From: an uncultured delta proteobacterium
GTDB taxonomy: Bacteria; Desulfobacterota; WTBG01
Assembly: GCA_963751515.1 (NCBI GenBank)
Contig: CAVVUR010000002.1
Span: 69,888-133,887 of the forward strand
DNA length: 64,000 bases
Direction: 5' to 3'
Both the position numbers and the translations under genes were made by a program. The notes under the pieces are model-generated. The model saw only the letters and a list, made by a program, of their open reading frames with translations. It searched no databases and had not been told where the DNA came from. Below, piece by piece: positions 28,840 through 37,561 of this stretch (within the stretch, counting starts at the first letter, position 1; each line of letters starts with the position of its first letter).

Positions 28840-31619
28840 ATGAGAAAGCTATCAATGATTTTGTCGGTTTTGTGTATTTCATTCCTGATTGCCTTTCCGG
28901 CCTTTCCGCTATCCTATCAGATTGATGTGGGACAGGATGGAATTGATACCGGCGGAGAGGTAGTCCTTTCTGGCCAAACAAACGTGAATATTGACCTTAT
29001 AGTCGATGACTATGACTGTCCGCCTGATGACAAACTCTTCGGCGTGCAGTCATATCTTTACATTGATGAGTCGATTGTCAAGGTAAACAGCTGCACACCG
29101 CGCACAGACCGCGGGTGTGATCTTTCGCTGAGCGGATGCACGCCTGCAGGAACCCAATGTGTACAGCGTGATCTGTAGTAACTTTCGTTTTATAACTGTT
29201 TCCCGGCGGCAGCCTGACTTTTGCCACTTTTAATGTTACGGTATTGGACAGGAACGACCGTAATGAGATTGGAGAATGACATTAGTGATCTTGATCCGGG
29301 TTATGGATCCTATGGTGATGGATATGTAGCCGACTGTACCCTGACAGGTCAAGTATTTCCTGCCGATGCAAGTCTCACGATTAATCCTTCACAAGCGGTC
29401 TGCGGCAACGGAAATCCCAGCCAGGAGAGCAGTGTGATGACGGCAATACCGTCGGTGGAGACTGCTGCAGCGCCACCTGTCAGTTCGAAGGGGCAGGCAA
29501 CCCATGCGGAGACGGCAATACCTGCAATGGCGCAGAAACCTGTAACGGTACCGGCATCTGCCAGGCCGGCGCGCCGATTAACTGCAATGACTCCAACGTC
29601 TGCACCACGGACACCTGTAATCCAGCATCCGGCTGTGTGAATACCCCGATCAGCTGCGATGACGCCAGTCTCTGCACCACGGATACTTGTAATCCAGCAT
29701 CCGGCTGCGTGAATACCCCGATCAGCTGCGATGACGCCAGTCTCTGCACCACGGACACCTGTAATCCAGCATCCGGCTGTGTGAATACCCCGATCAGCTG
29801 CGATGACGCCAGTCTCTGCACAACGGATACTTGTAATCCAGCATCCGGCTGTGTGAATACCGTCATCAGCTGCGATGACTCCAACCCCAACACCACGGAC
29901 ACTTGCGACCCGGCTACCGGCGAGTGCATCCACACTCCCCCGGGTTGCACAAATCCCTGTAGCGATAATAATGCATGTACAGAGAACGACGCGTGTGTCG
30001 GTGACGTATGCACAGGCGCTCCGGTCAATTGTGACGACGCCAGTCTCTGCACCACGGACACCTGTAATCCAGCATCCGGCTGTGTGAATACCCCGATCAG
30101 CTGCGATGACGCCAGTCTCTGCACCACGGACACCTGTAATCCAGCATCCGGCTGCGTGAATACCCCGATCAGCTGCGATGACGCCAGTCTCTGCACCACG
30201 GACACCTGTAATCCAGCATCCGGCTGTGTGAATACCCCGATCAGCTGCGATGACGCCAGTCTCTGCACCACGGATACTTGTAATCCAGCATCCGGCTGCG
30301 TGAATACCGTCATCAGCTGCGATGACTCCAACCCCAACACCACGGACACCTGCGACCCGGCTACCGGCGAGTGCATCCACACTCCTCCCCCGGGCTGTAC
30401 AGATCCCTGTAGTGATAATAATGCATGTACAGAGAACGACGTGTGTGTCGGTGACGTATGCACAGGCGCTCCGGTCAATTGTGACGACGCCAGTCTCTGC
30501 ACCACGGACACCTGTAATCCAGCATCCGGCTGTGTGAATACCCCGATCAGCTGCGATGACGCCAGTCTCTGCACCACGGACACCTGTAATCCAGCATCCG
30601 GCTGCGTGAATACCCCGATCAGCTGCGACGACGCCAATCCCTGCTCTACGGACACCTGCAACCCGGCTACCGGTTGCATGAATACACCAATCAATTGCGA
30701 CGACGGCGACCCCAATACCACGGATACCTGCGATCCGGCTACCGGTGAGTGCATCCACACCCCCCCGGGTTGCATAAATCCCTGTAGCGATAATAATGCG
30801 TGTACAGAGAACGACGTTTGTGTGGGTGACGTATGCACAGGAACTCCAGTCAATTGCAATGACTCCAACCTTTGCACCACGGATACATGCAACCCCGTAA
30901 CCGGCTGCGTGTATACCCCGATCAGTTGTGATGACGGAGTAAGCTGCACCGACGATACCTGCAACCCGGCTACCGGCTGTTCGAACACCCCCAATAACGC
31001 CAATTGCCAGGATGACGGTCTCTATTGCAACGGTGATGAGGTTTGCGACCCGATTAATGATTGTTTTTCAACCGGCAATCCCTGTCCGGATGGTTCCGTT
31101 TGCGATGAGATAAACGATGAATGCGATCCGGAAGCAGGCTTAACCGTTAAGGTTGATATCAAACCCGGGTCCTGTCCGAATCCGCTCAACCTAAAGAGTC
31201 GAGGCGTTGTATCGATTGCTATACTCGGGTCAATGGATTTTAAGGTGAATGATATCGATCCCATGACCGTTATGATAGGCAGAGCAAGCGTTCCAGGGAA
31301 GGTAGCTCCCATTCGCTACAGCTATGAAGATGTTGCCACGCCTTATGAAGGTGAACTCTGCGGATGTAATCGTTGCTCTGGCGATGGGTACAAGGACCTG
31401 GTTCTTAAATTCGAAATCGAGAAACTGGTTGATACCTTAATGCTTGGAGAGGCGGCCGGGCAAACAGTCCCGCTCATCATAACCGGCAATCTTAAGGAAA
31501 GAAAGGGTGGCACAGCATTCTCGGGCCAGGACTGCATGAAAATCCTTAAGAATACTTTAAAATTAAAAGATTTGATTGACCAGTTCAAGAAAGAGAAGGA
31601 TAACCGCGGCAAGAAGTAG
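28840..31619 (+). pseudogene. Secreted Cys-rich repeat protein (N-terminal beta-sandwich-like 'YxCxPxDxLFG' domain, CGNG..GEQCDDGN unit, ~15 CDDxxxCTxDxCNPxxGC repeats), at least 3 frameshifts near the 5' end
   Basis: ORFs 28840-29178, 29221-29640 and 29637-31619 align consecutively to the paralogues at 31911 and 43579. Signal peptide MRKLSMILSVLCISFLIAFPAF. Frameshifts at ~29150, ~29200-29250 and ~29415. Confidence 0.6.
29581..30960. repeat. Nested tandem repeats: 72-bp (24-aa) units organised in a 447-bp higher-order repeat
   Basis: The unit TGCGATGACGCCAGTCTCTGCACCACGGACACCTGTAATCCAGCATCCGGCTGTGTGAATACCCCGATCAGC recurs near-identically. Blocks start at 29581, 30028 and 30475 (period 447). 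Confidence 0.9.
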
Positions 31620-31910: not shown

Positions 31911-34900
31911 ATGAAAAAGCTATCATTGATTTTATCGGTTCTGTTAATCTCAACCCTCTTTGCCATTCCAGCCTTTCCGTTATCTTATGAAATTGATGTC
32001 GGCCAGAATGGGACCTTTGAAACAACTGGTGGCAATAATGATGGGACCATCGATCTTAATGTTAATGATTCTGTAACCATGGACATTTATGTGGACGGAT
32101 ATTCCTGTGCGCCAAATGATCAGCTGTTTGGAGTACAAGCATACATGTTTGTAGATGAATCACAGGTTTCGGTTAGCGGTTTCCCTTTTAGTGTCGCAAA
32201 TGGCGGGCCTTTTGATAATGGTTTGAGTGGATTTATACAGCAAGAAGCAAATGTGTATCTTTTGTCCGCCTCCAACTTTACTTTCGTAACTGTCACCGGT
32301 GGGAAACAAAAATTTGCCACGATGACTTTATCATGTATTTCAAGCGGTACGTTTACTCTGGCTATAGCAAATGACCTTACCTCTTATGGGTACTCATCGT
32401 ATTCCGACGGATTCGTTGCGGATTGTGGCTTAGTCTATTTGTTTCCCACTACTGCGTTATTTACAATTAATCAGAACCAGCCGACCGTCTTTCCGGAAGT
32501 CGCAACCACCTGTCCGGTAGTGGCAACGACCTGCCCGGCAGTAGCGACGACCTGCCCAGAAGCGGCAACCAGCTGTCCGGCAGATCCGACGAACTGTCCG
32601 ATTGCAGCCACCAGCTGTCCGGCAGATGCGACCTTCTGTCCTGAAATACCAACGGTATGTCCTGAAGGAGTGACTACCTGCCCAGAAATACCAACGACCT
32701 GTCCCACAGGTGCGACTTTCTGCCCAGAAAATCCAACCTTCTGCCCAGAAAATCCAACCTTCTGCCCTGAAATAGCAACCGTCTGTCCTGAATCAGTAAC
32801 CGCTTGTCCAATAGTGGCGACGGTTTGTCCTGAAGGCGTGACCCTCTGTCCTGCAAATCCAACCTTCTGCCCTGAAGGTGTAACTACCTGCCCCGAAATA
32901 CCAACTGCCTGTCCTGCAGTTGCAACCGTCTGTCCTGAATCAGTAACCAATTGTCCGGTGCAGGCAACCACTTGTCCGATAGAGGCAACTGTTTGTCCCG
33001 CAGGTGCGACCTTCTGTCCCGAAATACCAACTGTATGCCCCGAGGCGGCAACGATCTGCCCAGAAATATCAACGACCTGTCCCACAGGTGCGACTTTCTG
33101 CCCTGAAAATCCGACCTTCTGTCCTGAAATACCAACAACATGCCCTGAGACAGCAACTGTCTGTCCCGTAGAGGCAACGGTGTGTCCGGAGGAAGCAACG
33201 GTTTGTCCGGTAGAGGCAACAGTGTGCCCGGAGGAAGCAACTGTCTGTCCTATAGAGACAACAGTTTGTCCAGTAGGCGCGACCTTCTGCCCTGTAACTG
33301 AAACTGCCTGTCCTGAAACGGAAACGGTGTGCCCCGCCGCTGATTGTCCGTTAGCTTATAAGTTCGATTTTGATGGTGACAGGTACTGGGATACAGAATG
33401 GGAATTAACTCCTCCTGACCCACCTGCTGCCGGCGAGACAGTTCAAGTTGACATCTGGCTGAATGGATATGTGTGTCCGCCGAGTGACGATCTTTTTGGC
33501 ATACAGTTATACTTTTTGTATGATCCAAATGCCATGCAGGTGATCCAGGCCTATCCTAATAATAGCGATCACGGAGGACCTTTCGATCCGAGCCTAAGTG
33601 GATTTCTACCGCAGGCGCCCGGAATATATCAATTGATTGCCGCAAGTTTCGATTTTGTCTCAGTGATTGGTAACAGGATTTTAGTGGGAACGATTGAACT
33701 GCAGTGTACAGAGGCCGGCAGTAACATTGCGATTGTGGCTGCAGACGACCTGGGATTTGATCCATATAGAGATGGATTTGTTGCAGACTGCGAATCTGTT
33801 TCGCAATTTCCCATCGAAGCTATTGCAACAATATACCAACTGTGCAACTCAGATGCAGACTGCGATGACAGTAACCAGTGCACCACGGAATATTGCGACA
33901 CAGAAACAGACAGATGTGTTTATACTGTATTGGAAAATGACACACCCTGTGATGACGGTGTGTCCTGCAATGACCCTGATATTTGTGTTGACGGACAATG
34001 CGTGTTTCAGGGTGACCCCTGCTGCGAGATTGCCATCGACCCCAAAACTGCCGAAGCGTATTACGGCGAGACCATCCAATTTACGGTCTCTGAGAAAGGA
34101 GACTGCAACCCGACGCCTTGTTACACCTGGGAAGTGCTGGCCTCGGGCGGCACGGGGAACACCACAGAGAGATACAGCTGGGCGGCTGCGGCTGAGGCAG
34201 GCACAGGCAACACGGCGGGCGGTGGTGTGATAGACGAGAATGGCCTCTATACTGCCGGAGATTCTGTAGGTACCGACATCGTTAGGGTAACCGACAACTG
34301 CAGCACTGGCGCACCCTACGATGAGGCGGAAGTGACTGTTACCGGACCGCCTCCAACAACTACAACAACAAGCGTAAGACCGACAACCACCACTACGAGT
34401 ATAGAAACAGAATGTGATGAGGATATAGACTGTACTGATGAATTGTACTGCAACGGCGCCGAGACATGTGTAGGTGGAATTTGCCAGGACGGGACGCCGG
34501 TTGCCTGCACTGATGACGGACAATTCTGCAATGGCACGGAGAGCTGCAGCGAGCAGGCTGATGCGTGTGTCAGTTCCGGCAATCCCTGCGGGACCACACA
34601 ATCCTGCAATGAGACAACCGATGCATGCGAGCAGCTTGCCCGGATTGACGCGCTTTTGCCTCCTTCCTGGTATCAGTCAAGGTGGATACCCTTGATCAGG
34701 CCGCTGCGCATTGTCGGATCAGGCACCAGTTTTCAGGCTCGTGAATCAAAAGTTACCTTTGAGCCGAACATTGCCGTATTTCCGTTCTTTTCGAGAGTCG
34801 TGGATGAAGAAAATATCCTCATCTGGACCTATATCATGCCGCAGTGGCTGACCAGGCCGCTCGAGGGACCTGTACAGGTGACAGTCACTACCGGTTCTGA

Positions 34901-34973
34901 AGTAGTATCTGCCGACTGGGATATCAATTTGCTCCCCTTCCCACTTGATCAAGAAGGGGCGGATCTGGAGTAA
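31911..34973 (+). CDS. Secreted modular Cys-rich protein: two 'YxCxPxDxLFG' beta-sandwich-like domains, 40 PxxxTxC heptads, Cys-rich DG..C.. repeats, Ig-like region, Thr-rich linker
   Basis: 1020 aa; AAGGAGG RBS; signal peptide MKKLSLILSVLLISTLFAIPAF; paralogous to the N-termini of 28840 and 43579. Confidence 0.6.
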   Translation: MKKLSLILSVLLISTLFAIPAFPLSYEIDVGQNGTFETTGGNNDGTIDLNVNDSVTMDIYVDGYSCAPNDQLFGVQAYMFVDESQVSVSGFPFSVANGGPFDNGLSGFIQQEANVYLLSASNFTFVTVTGGKQKFATMTLSCISSGTFTLAIANDLTSYGYSSYSDGFVADCGLVYLFPTTALFTINQNQPTVFPEVATTCPVVATTCPAVATTCPEAATSCPADPTNCPIAATSCPADATFCPEIPTVCPEGVTTCPEIPTTCPTGATFCPENPTFCPENPTFCPEIATVCPESVTACPIVATVCPEGVTLCPANPTFCPEGVTTCPEIPTACPAVATVCPESVTNCPVQATTCPIEATVCPAGATFCPEIPTVCPEAATICPEISTTCPTGATFCPENPTFCPEIPTTCPETATVCPVEATVCPEEATVCPVEATVCPEEATVCPIETTVCPVGATFCPVTETACPETETVCPAADCPLAYKFDFDGDRYWDTEWELTPPDPPAAGETVQVDIWLNGYVCPPSDDLFGIQLYFLYDPNAMQVIQAYPNNSDHGGPFDPSLSGFLPQAPGIYQLIAASFDFVSVIGNRILVGTIELQCTEAGSNIAIVAADDLGFDPYRDGFVADCESVSQFPIEAIATIYQLCNSDADCDDSNQCTTEYCDTETDRCVYTVLENDTPCDDGVSCNDPDICVDGQCVFQGDPCCEIAIDPKTAEAYYGETIQFTVSEKGDCNPTPCYTWEVLASGGTGNTTERYSWAAAAEAGTGNTAGGGVIDENGLYTAGDSVGTDIVRVTDNCSTGAPYDEAEVTVTGPPPTTTTTSVRPTTTTTSIETECDEDIDCTDELYCNGAETCVGGICQDGTPVACTDDGQFCNGTESCSEQADACVSSGNPCGTTQSCNETTDACEQLARIDALLPPSWYQSRWIPLIRPLRIVGSGTSFQARESKVTFEPNIAVFPFFSRVVDEENILIWTYIMPQWLTRPLEGPVQVTVTTGSEVVSADWDINLLPFPLDQEGADLE
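32493..33332. repeat. 40 uninterrupted 21-bp (heptad) coding repeats, consensus P-[EV]-x-[AP]-T-x-C
   Basis: Counted in the translation from PEVATTC, PVVATTC ... to PETETVC; the register never slips. Confidence 0.9.
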
Positions 34974-35706: not shown

Positions 35707-35974
35707 ACGTTGATTACACCGACGCTTTCTGACATGAGGCTTCGGCCGCAATGCGATGGGATAGCATATTGGTGACTGCCCCCAAACACATGAGATCGCA
35801 TCGTGCTTTCTAATACTTTTCAGTGTTTCTGTCAAGTAGTCATTGACAGCCGCCTCTTTCTCCTCTTCACATAAAAACAGAAAACCAATAAAATGGATTG
35901 ATTTAGAACAGGGTATTTTGTTTAATGAAAGTCCTCTGGATGATTATTCCATTTTTTATGGCAGGCGCCCACCT

Positions 35975-37561
35975 ATGCAAAAAAATTACGCTGCGGCAGG
36001 CAAGGATGTGATCTCCTGGAACTCTCTTGTTGACGCCCTGGTGCTGATCACAATTTTTTCCGTGCTGCTGCTTGACTTTAACGGTTACAGATGGCTGATG
36101 CCCATTGACGAGGGGCAATGGCTTTTTTATGCCGATCAACTGTTACAGGGTAAAGTTTTATACCGGGAGATATGGTATCAATTTGGTCCAATGGTGCTCT
36201 TTGGTCTGAAGTGGAGCATGCAGATTCTTGGCAAGACCCTGGCCACGGAGCGAATCTATTTCTGGTTCTTGTCTCTCATCGGTTTAGCGGCGTTGTATCT
36301 CTTTTCAAAGCAACTATTGGAAAGAAGAACAATCAAATTACTCCTTTGCCTCATCGCCTTGCTTAACAGCCTAACCTGCAAATTAATGATGGTCAATCCG
36401 GCTTTTCTTGCAAGGCAGTGTTTCGGCCTGTTGCCATTATATCTGCTGTTTGGCTCAAGCAGCGAAAAGGGGAGATGGAAATATTTTGCAGCCGGGTTTT
36501 TAAGCATGTTTTCAATACTGGTATCCCAGGAGACCGGCACTTTTTCGCTTGTCGCATCATTGACCTTTCTGGCTATGAAGCGATTTGAATCCCGAAGGAA
36601 TGCCCTGTGCTTAAAAGAACTCTCTTGGTTCGCGGCGGCATTTCTTCTCTGCCTGCTGATGTGGATGAGTTATTGCTTACATGAAGGATTTGTGAAGGAC
36701 TACTTTGTGATCAGCTTTGGCGAAATCTTTTCCATGGTGGGGAAATACCAGCATTCCCCGTTGCCTGTGCTTTCATCCCTGATTGAAAATTACCGGAACC
36801 TGGCCGCTTATTACCACATGGCGTTGACATACTTACCAATACTTGTCTCGCTGCTTACCATCACTTATGTGGCGGCCAGCAAAAAGTTGGATGCCAGGCT
36901 CGTTTCGATATCCGTGTACGGCATCTGTTGCTTCGGCATACTTCTGGGGCGATGTGATATTTACCATTCCACATTTGCGGGACTCCCCCTCCTTATTCTC
37001 ATTTCCTACTGGTTTGAAAGGGCCCTTTGCGTCAAAGGACGAACTGCACAATACTCTATGATCAGTGTGATTACGGGTTTCTGCTTATTGCTTCTCACAG
37101 CCAATGCGTCCAATCTCAGTAAGCTTTTTGCAAACTCCCGCATAGTGAAAAAGACGGCATATGCAGAAAAATTGTCCTATTTGGGAAGTGCCATGATTCC
37201 CATGGATCAATACGAAGCCATATGGAGTGCAAAAGGGGTTATCGAACATAATTCGCATGCATCGCAAGAATTTATTATTATACTGAATTCACCATTTTAC
37301 TACTTTTTCATAGATCGCCCCACCAGCACCAGGTTTGCCACACCCCTGTTTGCAAATAATGAAGAAGCAAAGCGGGAAATACTTCAGGAATTGCGTGAGG
37401 GAACATATTACTTTGTTCTCTATGACAATATTCGGTTTCCAGCTGTAGACTATGATTATTACTTTCGGGAAATCTTTGACGTTGTGAGGGCAGGATACAG
37501 CACTTTTTCCAAAACAGGCGATCATACTTTTGTCCTGAAAATCCGAAACCGCTCACGGTAA
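35975..37561 (+). CDS. Polytopic membrane protein of unknown function (low-GC gene)
   Basis: ORF 35843-37561 (first ATG at 35975) with at least 10 hydrophobic helices followed by a soluble C-terminal part. Visibly AT-richer than its surroundings. Function not assignable. Confidence 0.4.
   Translation: MQKNYAAAGKDVISWNSLVDALVLITIFSVLLLDFNGYRWLMPIDEGQWLFYADQLLQGKVLYREIWYQFGPMVLFGLKWSMQILGKTLATERIYFWFLSLIGLAALYLFSKQLLERRTIKLLLCLIALLNSLTCKLMMVNPAFLARQCFGLLPLYLLFGSSSEKGRWKYFAAGFLSMFSILVSQETGTFSLVASLTFLAMKRFESRRNALCLKELSWFAAAFLLCLLMWMSYCLHEGFVKDYFVISFGEIFSMVGKYQHSPLPVLSSLIENYRNLAAYYHMALTYLPILVSLLTITYVAASKKLDARLVSISVYGICCFGILLGRCDIYHSTFAGLPLLILISYWFERALCVKGRTAQYSMISVITGFCLLLLTANASNLSKLFANSRIVKKTAYAEKLSYLGSAMIPMDQYEAIWSAKGVIEHNSHASQEFIIILNSPFYYFFIDRPTSTRFATPLFANNEEAKREILQELREGTYYFVLYDNIRFPAVDYDYYFREIFDVVRAGYSTFSKTGDHTFVLKIRNRSR

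Follow-up and report, generated by a model that had tools for sequence, protein, structure and literature searches.

In clostridial scaffoldins the Pro/Thr linkers bear O-glycans, and plant extensins are Hyp-rich polyproline-II rods that carry periodic Tyr cross-link motifs. The human IgG3 hinge is built of tandem CPRCP-containing units whose polyproline helices are linked to each other by inter-chain disulfides. The BAD-1 adhesin of Blastomyces contains 41 tandem 17-residue disulfide-closed loops (PMC3708853), and YTV cysteine-rich cell-wall proteins are reported in Planctomycetales alone and not in early-branching lineages (PMC8567305). Here we analyse a heptad repeat, C-P-x-x-x-T-x, which places a cysteine at every seventh residue over a long stretch of a secreted bacterial protein and which recurs in many other proteins.

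Host gene and heptad array

The array lies between two related domains, D1 and D2, of a protein encoded at 31911..34973 of the window (the whole stretch of DNA that was analysed, 64,000 nucleotides). The gene and its segments are given below, with the basis for an assignment in brackets.

31911..34973, + strand: whole gene, encoding a 1020-aa secreted modular protein with the heptad array (open reading frame and orthologs)
31911..31979, + strand: Sec-type signal peptide, MKKLSLILSVLLISTLFAIPAFP (hydrophobic core after a basic n-region, by reading the sequence)
31980..32492, + strand: D1, a beta-rich domain of ~170 aa (SYEIDVG...DGFVADC...PTVF), immediately 5' of the array
32493..33332, + strand: heptad array, 40 units of P-x-x-x-T-x-C (equivalent to C-P-x-x-x-T-x), residues 195-474
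33333..33347, + strand: degenerate closing unit PAADC, which holds the 41st cysteine
33348..33842, + strand: D2, a second copy of the D1-type domain (38% identity to D1)
33843..34016, + strand: cysteine-rich module 1, with 9 Cys, Dicty_CTDC-like (sub-cut-off Pfam match)
34017..34346, + strand: beta-rich domain (AlphaFold2 strands; no Pfam match)
34347..34412, + strand: ordinary Pro/Thr linker of 22 residues without cysteine, PPPTTTTTSVRPTTTTTSIETE (read from the sequence)
34413..34631, + strand: cysteine-rich module 2, with 12 Cys, kept in orthologs
34632..34970, + strand: C-terminal beta-rich domain, kept in orthologs

The ortholog alignment indicates that the signal peptide is also retained, and the orthologs' version of the closing PAADC unit is PAA[DV]C or PADVC. 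Within cysteine-rich module 1 (residues 645-702), the Pfam model Dicty_CTDC (PF00526) matches residues 650-672 at 18.3 bits, below its 27-bit cut-off. The domain at 34017..34346 is the best-predicted part of the protein, with AlphaFold2 pLDDT values of 74-82 in blocks 711-730 and 771-810, all of them strands, and from a reading of these predicted strands it may be Ig-like; the full-length model, made with 4 orthologs, has a pLDDT of 35. The mature protein contains 73 Cys in all.

Translation of 32493-33332 (+) gives exactly 280 residues, from PEVATTC to PETETVC, which bears out the forty phased heptads described in the sequence-only reading of this DNA. The invariance claimed there for three residues is exact, as 40/40 heptads begin with Pro, carry Thr as the fifth residue and end in Cys, and the proposed consensus P-[EV]-x-[AP]-T-x-C likewise fits the counts at position 2 (E 22, V 6, A 6, I 4, T 2) and position 4 (A 21, P 10, V 5). 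Thr accounts for 55/280 residues of the array, Pro for 50/280 and Ser for 5/280, whereas K, R, H, M, W and Y are absent and the net charge is -32. The Cys-Pro dipeptide that a heme-regulatory motif requires is found at 39/39 internal junctions. In Tandem Repeats Finder the array interval has periods of 21, 42 and 105 nt, with the 42-nt period in parts of it. The array is not simply a recent amplification, as had been argued from its variable positions: 38/40 DNA units are distinct (32/40 at the peptide level), their mean pairwise identity is 62%, and the third positions of the invariant codons are scrambled. Pairwise identity at these third positions is 0.26, 0.29 and 0.52 for Pro, Thr and Cys, which is essentially random, and the first and second positions of the same codons are 100% identical between units. 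Set against the composition, three residues that stay fixed through 40 successive units exclude, as a back-of-envelope inference, a chance origin of the array.

Orthologs and purifying selection

Three orthologs (P0019, P0069 and P0082), 64-68% identical to the 31911 protein at full length, align across both flanks and contain the same repeat, so the frame assigned earlier is correct. The minus-strand open reading frames over the array are shadows of the repeat. Comparison of the array with that of P0019 (locus L007) over 90 aligned Pro, Thr and Cys codons gave pN = 0 and pS = 0.79, and identity at the variable positions is only 34%. The three residues are kept without amino-acid change while synonymous sites are saturated, which shows that purifying selection on them is absolute; the 7-residue spacing is likewise under absolute purifying selection. 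Heptad number varies within the orthologous set (40, 29, ~19 and ~15) with the flanks conserved, and the junctions around the array read ...PT[VI]FPEVAT.CP and ...CPAA[DV]CPLAYKF, the version in P0069 being CPADVCPLAYKF.

Recurrence of the module and family status

The repeat had been taken as a peculiarity of one protein, a view that does not survive database searches: it is instead a mobile module present in well over 100 protein clusters and in many architectures, mainly in Planctomycetota. A HMMER scan of proteins grouped at 50% identity matched 541 clusters at E <= 1e-3 and at least 131 at E <= 1e-10. We defined membership in the module as at least five tandem heptads with Cys, Pro (+1) and Thr (+5), together with extracellular-type partner domains, and signal peptides were checked in a few members. 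Runs of at least five C-P-x-x-x-T-x units occur in 166/216 retrieved proteins, the longest having 87, and the 31911 protein belongs to the module with 40 units. The named matches fall without exception in Planctomycetota (Phycisphaerae, Sedimentisphaerales), whereas the window itself has a Zixibacteria-like appearance. Arrays in the 166 proteins are C-terminal in 87, internal in 43 and N-terminal in 22, and their partner domains include GEVED with DUF7901, subtilase S8, cohesin/CARDB/BACON, laminin-G/PA14, discoidin, dockerin and DUF1566. A search of genome contigs for related loci matched only Cys-rich modules, in unrelated proteins of Myxococcota and Acidobacteriota, and was uninformative on the array.

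Among 4445 heptads family-wide, Pro is conserved in 90% and Thr in 96%, with Ser at the Thr position in 1%, and the Cys-Cys spacing within arrays is exactly 7 in 85%. A two-heptad (14-residue) periodicity is absent across the family (even minus odd lag identity 0.0, 44% of 91 runs, p = 0.46). Array Cys counts lean toward even numbers (88:57, p = 0.012; odd in 39% of arrays), a weakly positive parity test that reflects related proteins and a fuzzy definition of array edges.

The impression that this was no described repeat class is upheld, as neither Pfam-A nor NCBIfam matches the 31911 array or arrays of up to 87 heptads. In hmmscan of the whole 31911 protein at E <= 0.1, Dicty_CTDC and Cohesin alone were returned and the PT repeat (PF04886) was absent, and a full-text literature search did not find a description of a C-P-x-x-x-T-x repeat. 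The PT repeat, or a generic Pro-Thr linker, was rejected as an identity for the array on its period of 7, its invariant Cys and the lack of a model match. The RNA polymerase II CTD heptads, the sole sequence match in the PDB (phmmer, E 1.8e-4), were also set aside: the match is compositional, and the array has no Tyr, has invariant Cys and is secreted. YTV proteins (PF07639) were discarded because the model matched neither the 31911 protein nor 8 heptad proteins, and the array has no Tyr.

Predicted structure and flanking domains

Structure prediction, suggested earlier as a check, did not return a confident fold for the array. AlphaFold2 gave the array a pLDDT of ~25 in the full-length model and, when it was modelled with a 36-sequence alignment, a pLDDT of 40 with no secondary structure, low scores that are also expected from an unmodelled oligomer or a modified structure. 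At the level of these models, the array is shown to lack a predicted compact fold.

The proposal that the array separates two beta-sandwich domains stands in part. D1 and D2 are indeed two homologous, beta-rich domains with 38% identity, but 'beta-sandwich' corresponds to low-confidence strands, such as those AlphaFold2 models in D1, and to sub-threshold Cohesin matches. Cohesin (PF00963) scores 13.4 bits on the 31911 protein against a gathering threshold of 24.1 bits, the weak match spanning residues 497-555 within D2, and 3/8 copies of the domain match it below threshold (best E 0.012). Alignment of D1/D2 with the true cohesin segment of P0033 by hhalign was negative, and a D1/D2 profile search of the PDB gave no match. 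Two Cys are invariant among 8 aligned instances of the D1-type domain (alignment A3).

Gene neighbourhoods

The genes around 31911 in the window encode cysteine-rich secreted proteins, one of which carries a dockerin. The gene upstream of 31911 matches Dicty_CTDC at 277.9 bits with 15 repeats; this gene appears frameshifted. A polytopic membrane protein at 35843-37561, adjoining the 31911 gene, has no Pfam match and is missing from the ortholog locus. Across the 10 neighbouring window ORFs and 8 other contexts, no maturase, glycosyltransferase or Dsb system is conserved beside the heptad module. A DsbA-like protein with a signal peptide (CAHC) adjoins the heptad protein P0040 at L011, in 1/8 distinct contexts. 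A DUF4350 gene pair goes mainly with GEVED proteins and not with the heptad module itself.

Discussion

We favour, with slightly better than even confidence, the view that C-P-x-x-x-T-x arrays are an undescribed extracellular module that acts as a long, non-globular stalk or linker of variable length, in which each heptad supplies a cross-linking cysteine. In the 31911 protein, a secreted protein of scaffold type, the array would hold the weakly cohesin-like modules D1 and D2 a long way from each other and would probably adopt an extended, polyproline-II-like conformation. The polyproline-II helix rises ~0.31 nm per residue; an array of 280 residues, if extended in this way, would reach up to ~87 nm. 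The invariant cysteines most likely form covalent disulfide cross-links that stiffen the stalk, join chains or do both, and an inter-chain ladder could join chains in register. Such a regular ladder is favoured over alternating intra-chain closed loops because all heptads look equivalent. Loops that alternate between closed and open were rejected, as 91 runs show no two-heptad periodicity, with Cys-count parity weakly positive. Since 39% of arrays have an odd number of Cys and the mature 31911 protein has 73, complete pairing within a chain is not general. The DsbA-like neighbour, the even-count lean and the Cys-rich secreted neighbours lend circumstantial support to thiol chemistry. That the array exceeds an ordinary linker is seen in the 31911 protein itself, which holds a separate, plain 22-residue PT linker without Cys. 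A pure cross-linking model leaves the strict choice of Thr over Ser unexplained. The Sedimentisphaerales, which are among the named hosts, are anaerobes, and extracellular thiols of anaerobic hosts may stay reduced, which would favour ligand or free-thiol roles.

An alternative that overlaps in part with the stalk is a mucin-like scaffold in which O-glycans on the invariant Thr give stiffness and protease resistance and the Cys are secondary. The Thr and Pro content (55/280 and 50/280), the linker placement and variable length of the arrays, and the nucleotide-sugar genes (an NTP_transferase and two epimerases) upstream of P0064 on two related metagenome contigs that both bear this gene (L009, L010) are all consistent with such a scaffold. 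We nevertheless consider it unlikely, for it leaves the 100% Cys and the exact 7-residue spacing unexplained, O-glycosylation sites usually accept Ser whereas the family has Ser in 1% and Thr in 96%, and neither the window nor 8 further contexts have a conserved glycosyltransferase beside the module. The cysteines could instead remain reduced, with Cys-Pro sites that bind a metal ion, an iron-sulfur species or heme, in the manner of heme-regulatory motifs; the array would then be a filament that sequesters metals, adheres to minerals or is redox-active. Of the 4445 heptads, 90% have Pro directly after Cys and 26% have K or R directly before it, the named hosts belong to anaerobic lineages, the number of Cys is odd in 39% of arrays and all heptads look equivalent, each of which would suit a series of thiolate ligands. 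This ligand role is decidedly improbable in our estimate, given that there is one ligand per 7 residues, that the 31911 array has neither His nor Met, that the surroundings in the window and 8 contexts include no conserved gene for handling metal or heme, and that the DsbA-like neighbour at L011 suggests oxidation; we know of no metal site built from isolated Cys at 7-residue spacing. In its most specific form, to which we give very little credence, Cys left unoxidised under anoxia would line up as 40-100 Cys-Pro thiolate sites with a pitch of ~2 nm that would bind heme, iron-sulfur species or chalcophile metals, and the flanking modules would dock the array to other surface proteins. If true, this would be a filament outside the cell, redox-active or metal-harvesting, of a previously undescribed kind.

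The regularity of the array could also reflect a disulfide-braced beta-solenoid with 2-3 heptads per coil of a narrow beta-helix, the Thr stacked and the Cys internal, for which insect antifreeze proteins such as that of Tenebrio, with its 12-residue TCT repeat, provide a model. The exact periodicity, the invariant Thr, the beta-branched residues at position 4 (V/I/T 51%, family logo) and the 42-nt periods in portions of the 31911 array would be expected of a solenoid. Yet AlphaFold2, which in our experience usually finds solenoids readily, places zero strands in the array even with the 36-sequence alignment; 91 runs show no family-wide 14-residue periodicity; and Pro every 7 residues, with extra Pro at positions 3 and 5 (20% and 14%, family), disfavours regular sheets. 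We regard this fold as very unlikely. The Cys(i)-Thr(i+5) spacing of the heptads recalls thermocellin and raises the idea of enzyme-made Cys-Thr cross-links, lanthionine-type or radical-SAM thioethers, along a large protein. Such links have just two features in their favour, Cys and Thr invariant together at a fixed spacing and the strictness of Thr over Ser, and we find them highly implausible: LanB/C/M and radical-SAM/SPASM genes are missing from the 10 neighbouring ORFs of the window and are not conserved in 8 contexts, a single radical-SAM gene occurs at a distance, at the edge of L014 only, and the heptad proteins are Sec substrates of 0.6-1.8 kaa, unlike the leader-peptide substrates of cytoplasmic maturases. 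That the array is an artefact of a wrong frame, of assembly collapse or of non-coding low-complexity DNA is scarcely credible. The apparently frameshifted upstream gene would fit an artefact, but 1020 codons are open, orthologs match the array and both of its sides, and codon-level selection is clear; collapse in assembly is unlikely because the DNA units are only 62% alike.

If the stalk interpretation is correct, the arrays represent a new and widespread repeat class, a measured, covalently cross-linkable stalk that uncultured anaerobic Planctomycetota, and at least one further lineage, would use in their surface proteins. The strict phasing of invariant Cys, Pro and Thr over 7 residues points to a regular structure, perhaps a polyproline-type ladder, that has no solved precedent. 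The module merits a curated family model, which would improve the annotation of many large 'hypothetical' proteins, and it may bear on the Cys- and Pro-rich envelope layers of early-branching planctomycetes that have no YTV proteins. A simple, protease-poor, tunable rod may also interest protein engineers.

Comparison with known systems

The Pro/Thr linkers of cellulosomal scaffoldins and secreted glycoside hydrolases, whose nearest curated model is PF04886, resemble the heptad arrays in being extracellular, Pro/Thr-rich, variable in length and non-globular, and the arrays are similarly placed between binding modules or ahead of dockerins. Scaffoldin linkers are Cys-free and have no fixed period, whereas the heptads have Cys every 7 residues (85-100% exact) in arrays of 280-700 residues. 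The IgG3 hinge likewise repeats Cys-Pro in an extended, Pro/Thr-rich domain spacer, and its cysteines form an inter-chain disulfide ladder; however, the hinge unit has 15 residues and three Cys (EPKSCDTPPPCPRCP), occurs in few copies, is eukaryotic and has no sequence kinship with the heptads, for which a ladder is hypothetical. YTV proteins (PMC8567305) are Cys-rich envelope proteins of the same phylum as the named heptad proteins and are thought to build a cross-linked layer, but the YTV motif is missing from the heptad proteins scanned. The RNA polymerase II CTD (YSPTSPS) shares a period of 7 with Pro and Thr; unlike the array, it is nuclear, Cys-free and Tyr/Ser-containing and is located at the C-terminus of RPB1. 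BAD-1 also bears dozens of short tandem repeats with conserved cysteines in each on a surface protein, though its repeats have two Cys and a folded WxxWxxW loop, in contrast to the single Cys per heptad and the alternating loops that were not seen here. Extensins are eukaryotic and tyrosine-cross-linked, with heavily arabinosylated Hyp, and differ from the array in these respects; the two would have in common a proline-rich extended rod with a periodic cross-linking residue and, possibly, a covalent extracellular network.

Heptad array and its conservation

Translation of positions 32493-33332 (+) gives 280 residues that form 40 unbroken heptads, from PEVATTC to PETETVC, with Pro at position 1, Thr at position 5 and Cys at position 7 in 40 of 40 units; both the register and the reading frame proposed in the sequence-only reading are right. 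The ORF to which the array belongs has a typical Sec signal peptide at its start.

Residues 195-474 of the 1020-aa ORF 31911..34973 (+): heptad array

Among the variable positions, position 2 is chiefly Glu (22 units), whilst position 4 has Ala in 21 units and Pro in 10. Only 14 amino-acid types are used, Lys, Arg, His, Met, Trp and Tyr being absent from the 280 residues, and the net charge is -32. By Tandem Repeats Finder, the array shows periods of 21, 42 and 105 nt. Minus-strand ORFs overlapping it are repeat shadows.

At the DNA level 38 of the 40 units are distinct (mean pairwise identity 62%). Every unit has the same bases 1 and 2 in its Pro, Thr and Cys codons; the third bases of these codons are near-random, with pairwise identities of 0.26, 0.29 and 0.52. 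Comparison with the ortholog P0019 (locus L007) revealed zero non-synonymous change in 90 aligned Pro/Thr/Cys codons, saturated synonymous sites (pS 0.79) and just 34% identity at the four variable heptad positions, indicating that selection has preserved these three residues and the distances between them. Divergent units, scrambled third bases and saturation without Pro/Thr/Cys replacement uphold the earlier statement that the array is not simply a recent amplification.

A widespread repeat family

A word-indexed search with the window array matched 85 proteins. When 1.84 billion cluster representatives were scanned in full with HMMER, 131 matched at E <= 1e-10 and 541 at E <= 1e-3, the latter an upper bound because the low-identity matches ranked last belong to other repeats. 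The sequence-only reading had proposed a search for the pattern, and the repeat, written from its cysteine as C-P-x-x-x-T-x, recurs widely: 166 of 216 retrieved proteins contain at least five units. The longest unbroken runs reach 87 heptads (P0004) and 59 (P0002), and Cys-Cys spacing within family arrays is exactly 7 in 85%.

Table. Family logo computed over 4445 heptads
Position 1: C
Position 2: P 90%
Position 3: P, A or V
Position 4: V, I or T (51%)
Position 5: E, P or A
Position 6: T 96% (S 1%)
Position 7: Q, K, R or E

The heptad arrays fall outside every Pfam-A and NCBIfam model, and we found no description of the heptad in the literature, in keeping with the initial impression that this is not a described repeat class. 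The window array is one instance of an extracellular repeat module that is widespread yet undescribed. Six proteins (P0120, P0144, P0152, P0171, P0178 and P0190) carry one Cys per 7 residues in consensus units quite unlike the heptad (CREQWTL x23; CPNYMVE/CPNNLGQ; CSESGVT x21; the 14-mer CIETPKVCQEEHTQ; CCPEEMT; CPSVSSD), and Cys-every-7 arrays may be a broader phenomenon.

All organism-named family matches are Planctomycetota (Phycisphaerae, Phycisphaeraceae and Sedimentisphaerales MAGs). The RNase R of the window's organism has closest sequences 93% identical and best named relatives, mostly Zixibacteria, at 61-65%; this one gene tentatively suggests a Zixibacteria-like placement, distinct from the Planctomycetota hosts. 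The same genome encodes a paralog on another contig.

L002 1123-3429 (contig C7:44497-44925 region): paralogous heptad protein

DUF1566-like segments occur in it repeatedly, followed by two segments that resemble dockerin, one D1-type domain, ~22 heptads and finally a C-terminal domain. Some of its heptads are broken as CVVTxC, and it resembles the retrieved protein P0072.

Architecture and gene neighbourhoods

Placement of 166 arrays is C-terminal in 87, internal in 43 and N-terminal in 22. The majority are partnered by GEVED+DUF7901; other partners include subtilase S8, cohesin/CARDB/BACON, laminin-G/PA14, discoidin, dockerin, LTD and TSP3. The window array links an upstream (D1) and a downstream (D2) homologous beta-rich domain of ~170 aa, 38% identical to each other. 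The array had been described as separating two beta-sandwich domains; the separation stands. D1 and D2 give Cohesin matches below threshold only, and a cohesin fold was not confirmed. Three orthologs keep the same junctions around ~29, 19 and 15 units, versus 40 in the window protein. Elsewhere the window protein has a conventional Pro/Thr linker of 22 residues that lacks cysteine, which argues that the heptad array is a separate kind of device.

In GEVED-type proteins (P0002, P0004, P0007, P0010, P0012, P0020, P0044, P0055 and others) the array is followed by a 40-60-aa spacer and, at the extreme C-terminus, a conserved tail of approximate form CP[AVI][IV][DE]xxC[PL][TS]V..[DE]Y....[KR], which may serve as a signal for sorting or anchoring. 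This tail is missing from the window protein.

Gene neighbours were compared in the window and eight other loci, and neither a maturase (radical SAM or lanthionine enzymes) nor a glycosyltransferase is conserved beside the heptad genes.

L008 15615-19768: DUF4350 / ABC_transp_aux-like gene pair, first gene 525 aa
L009 13448-18588: DUF4350 / ABC_transp_aux-like gene pair
L010 7251-12391: DUF4350 / ABC_transp_aux-like gene pair
L013 14848-19958: DUF4350 / ABC_transp_aux-like gene pair
L011 1800-7347: DUF4350 / ABC_transp_aux-like gene pair, here upstream of another heptad protein, P0040
L011 7660-9240: DsbA-like signal-peptide protein, 526 aa, Thioredoxin_4/DSBA domains, CAHC active site
L014 7118-14002: tandem pair of GEVED+DUF7901+heptad genes, 867 + 1333 aa, 20 + 25 heptads

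In Planctomycetota loci a GEVED+DUF7901+heptad gene is followed by the DUF4350 pair, each product ~820-870 aa except the first in L008; together they look like a conserved, uncharacterised cassette. In L014 the corresponding region contains a GATase1_like gene. The DsbA-like gene lies directly upstream of that for P0040 and was seen in this one locus.

In the window, an upstream Cys-rich gene (28840-29640) opens in one frame with a signal peptide and a D1-type domain, runs into stops, and resumes in another frame before 15 Dicty_CTDC repeats (29637-31619); an assembly indel probably explains the break. Adjoining the heptad gene, a gene for a polytopic membrane protein (35843-37561) has no Pfam match at E <= 0.01. 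Ortholog locus L007 has no such gene, and a PAS kinase gene directly follows there.

Predicted structure and the role of the cysteines

AlphaFold2 gave the full window protein (4 sequences) a mean pLDDT of 35, with the array at ~25, and the array alone (36 aligned family members) a pLDDT of 40, in both cases without secondary structure in the array. This outcome fits a predicted non-globular, extended segment; an oligomeric or modified structure, neither of which a monomer prediction can model, would give the same result.

The number of cysteines per array leans even (88 even versus 57 odd, p = 0.012). It is nevertheless odd in 39% of arrays, and the mature window protein has 73 Cys, so that complete pairing within the chain is no rule. 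Pairing of neighbouring cysteines within a chain would make closed and open heptads alternate and leave a 14-residue signature. This signature is absent across 91 long runs (identity at even minus odd lags 0.0; 44% of runs; p = 0.46), and every heptad thus looks equivalent. Judged from these sequence patterns, a ladder that joins chains in register, or a series of free ligands, would fit better than alternating loops. As the most likely role of the array we lean slightly toward a stalk or linker, long and variable in length, with one putative cross-linking cysteine per heptad.

Comparison with known systems

The sole PDB sequence match to the array, the RNA polymerase II CTD, was rejected as compositional. 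Within the phylum Planctomycetota the nearest analogue is the YTV cysteine-rich wall proteins, reported from Planctomycetales only and not from early-branching lineages (PMC8567305); the Pfam YTV model has no match in the window protein or the heptad proteins scanned. In function, the array comes closest to scaffoldin Pro/Thr linkers, the IgG3 hinge and plant extensins, and we rate the heptad array among the Pro/Thr extracellular linkers.
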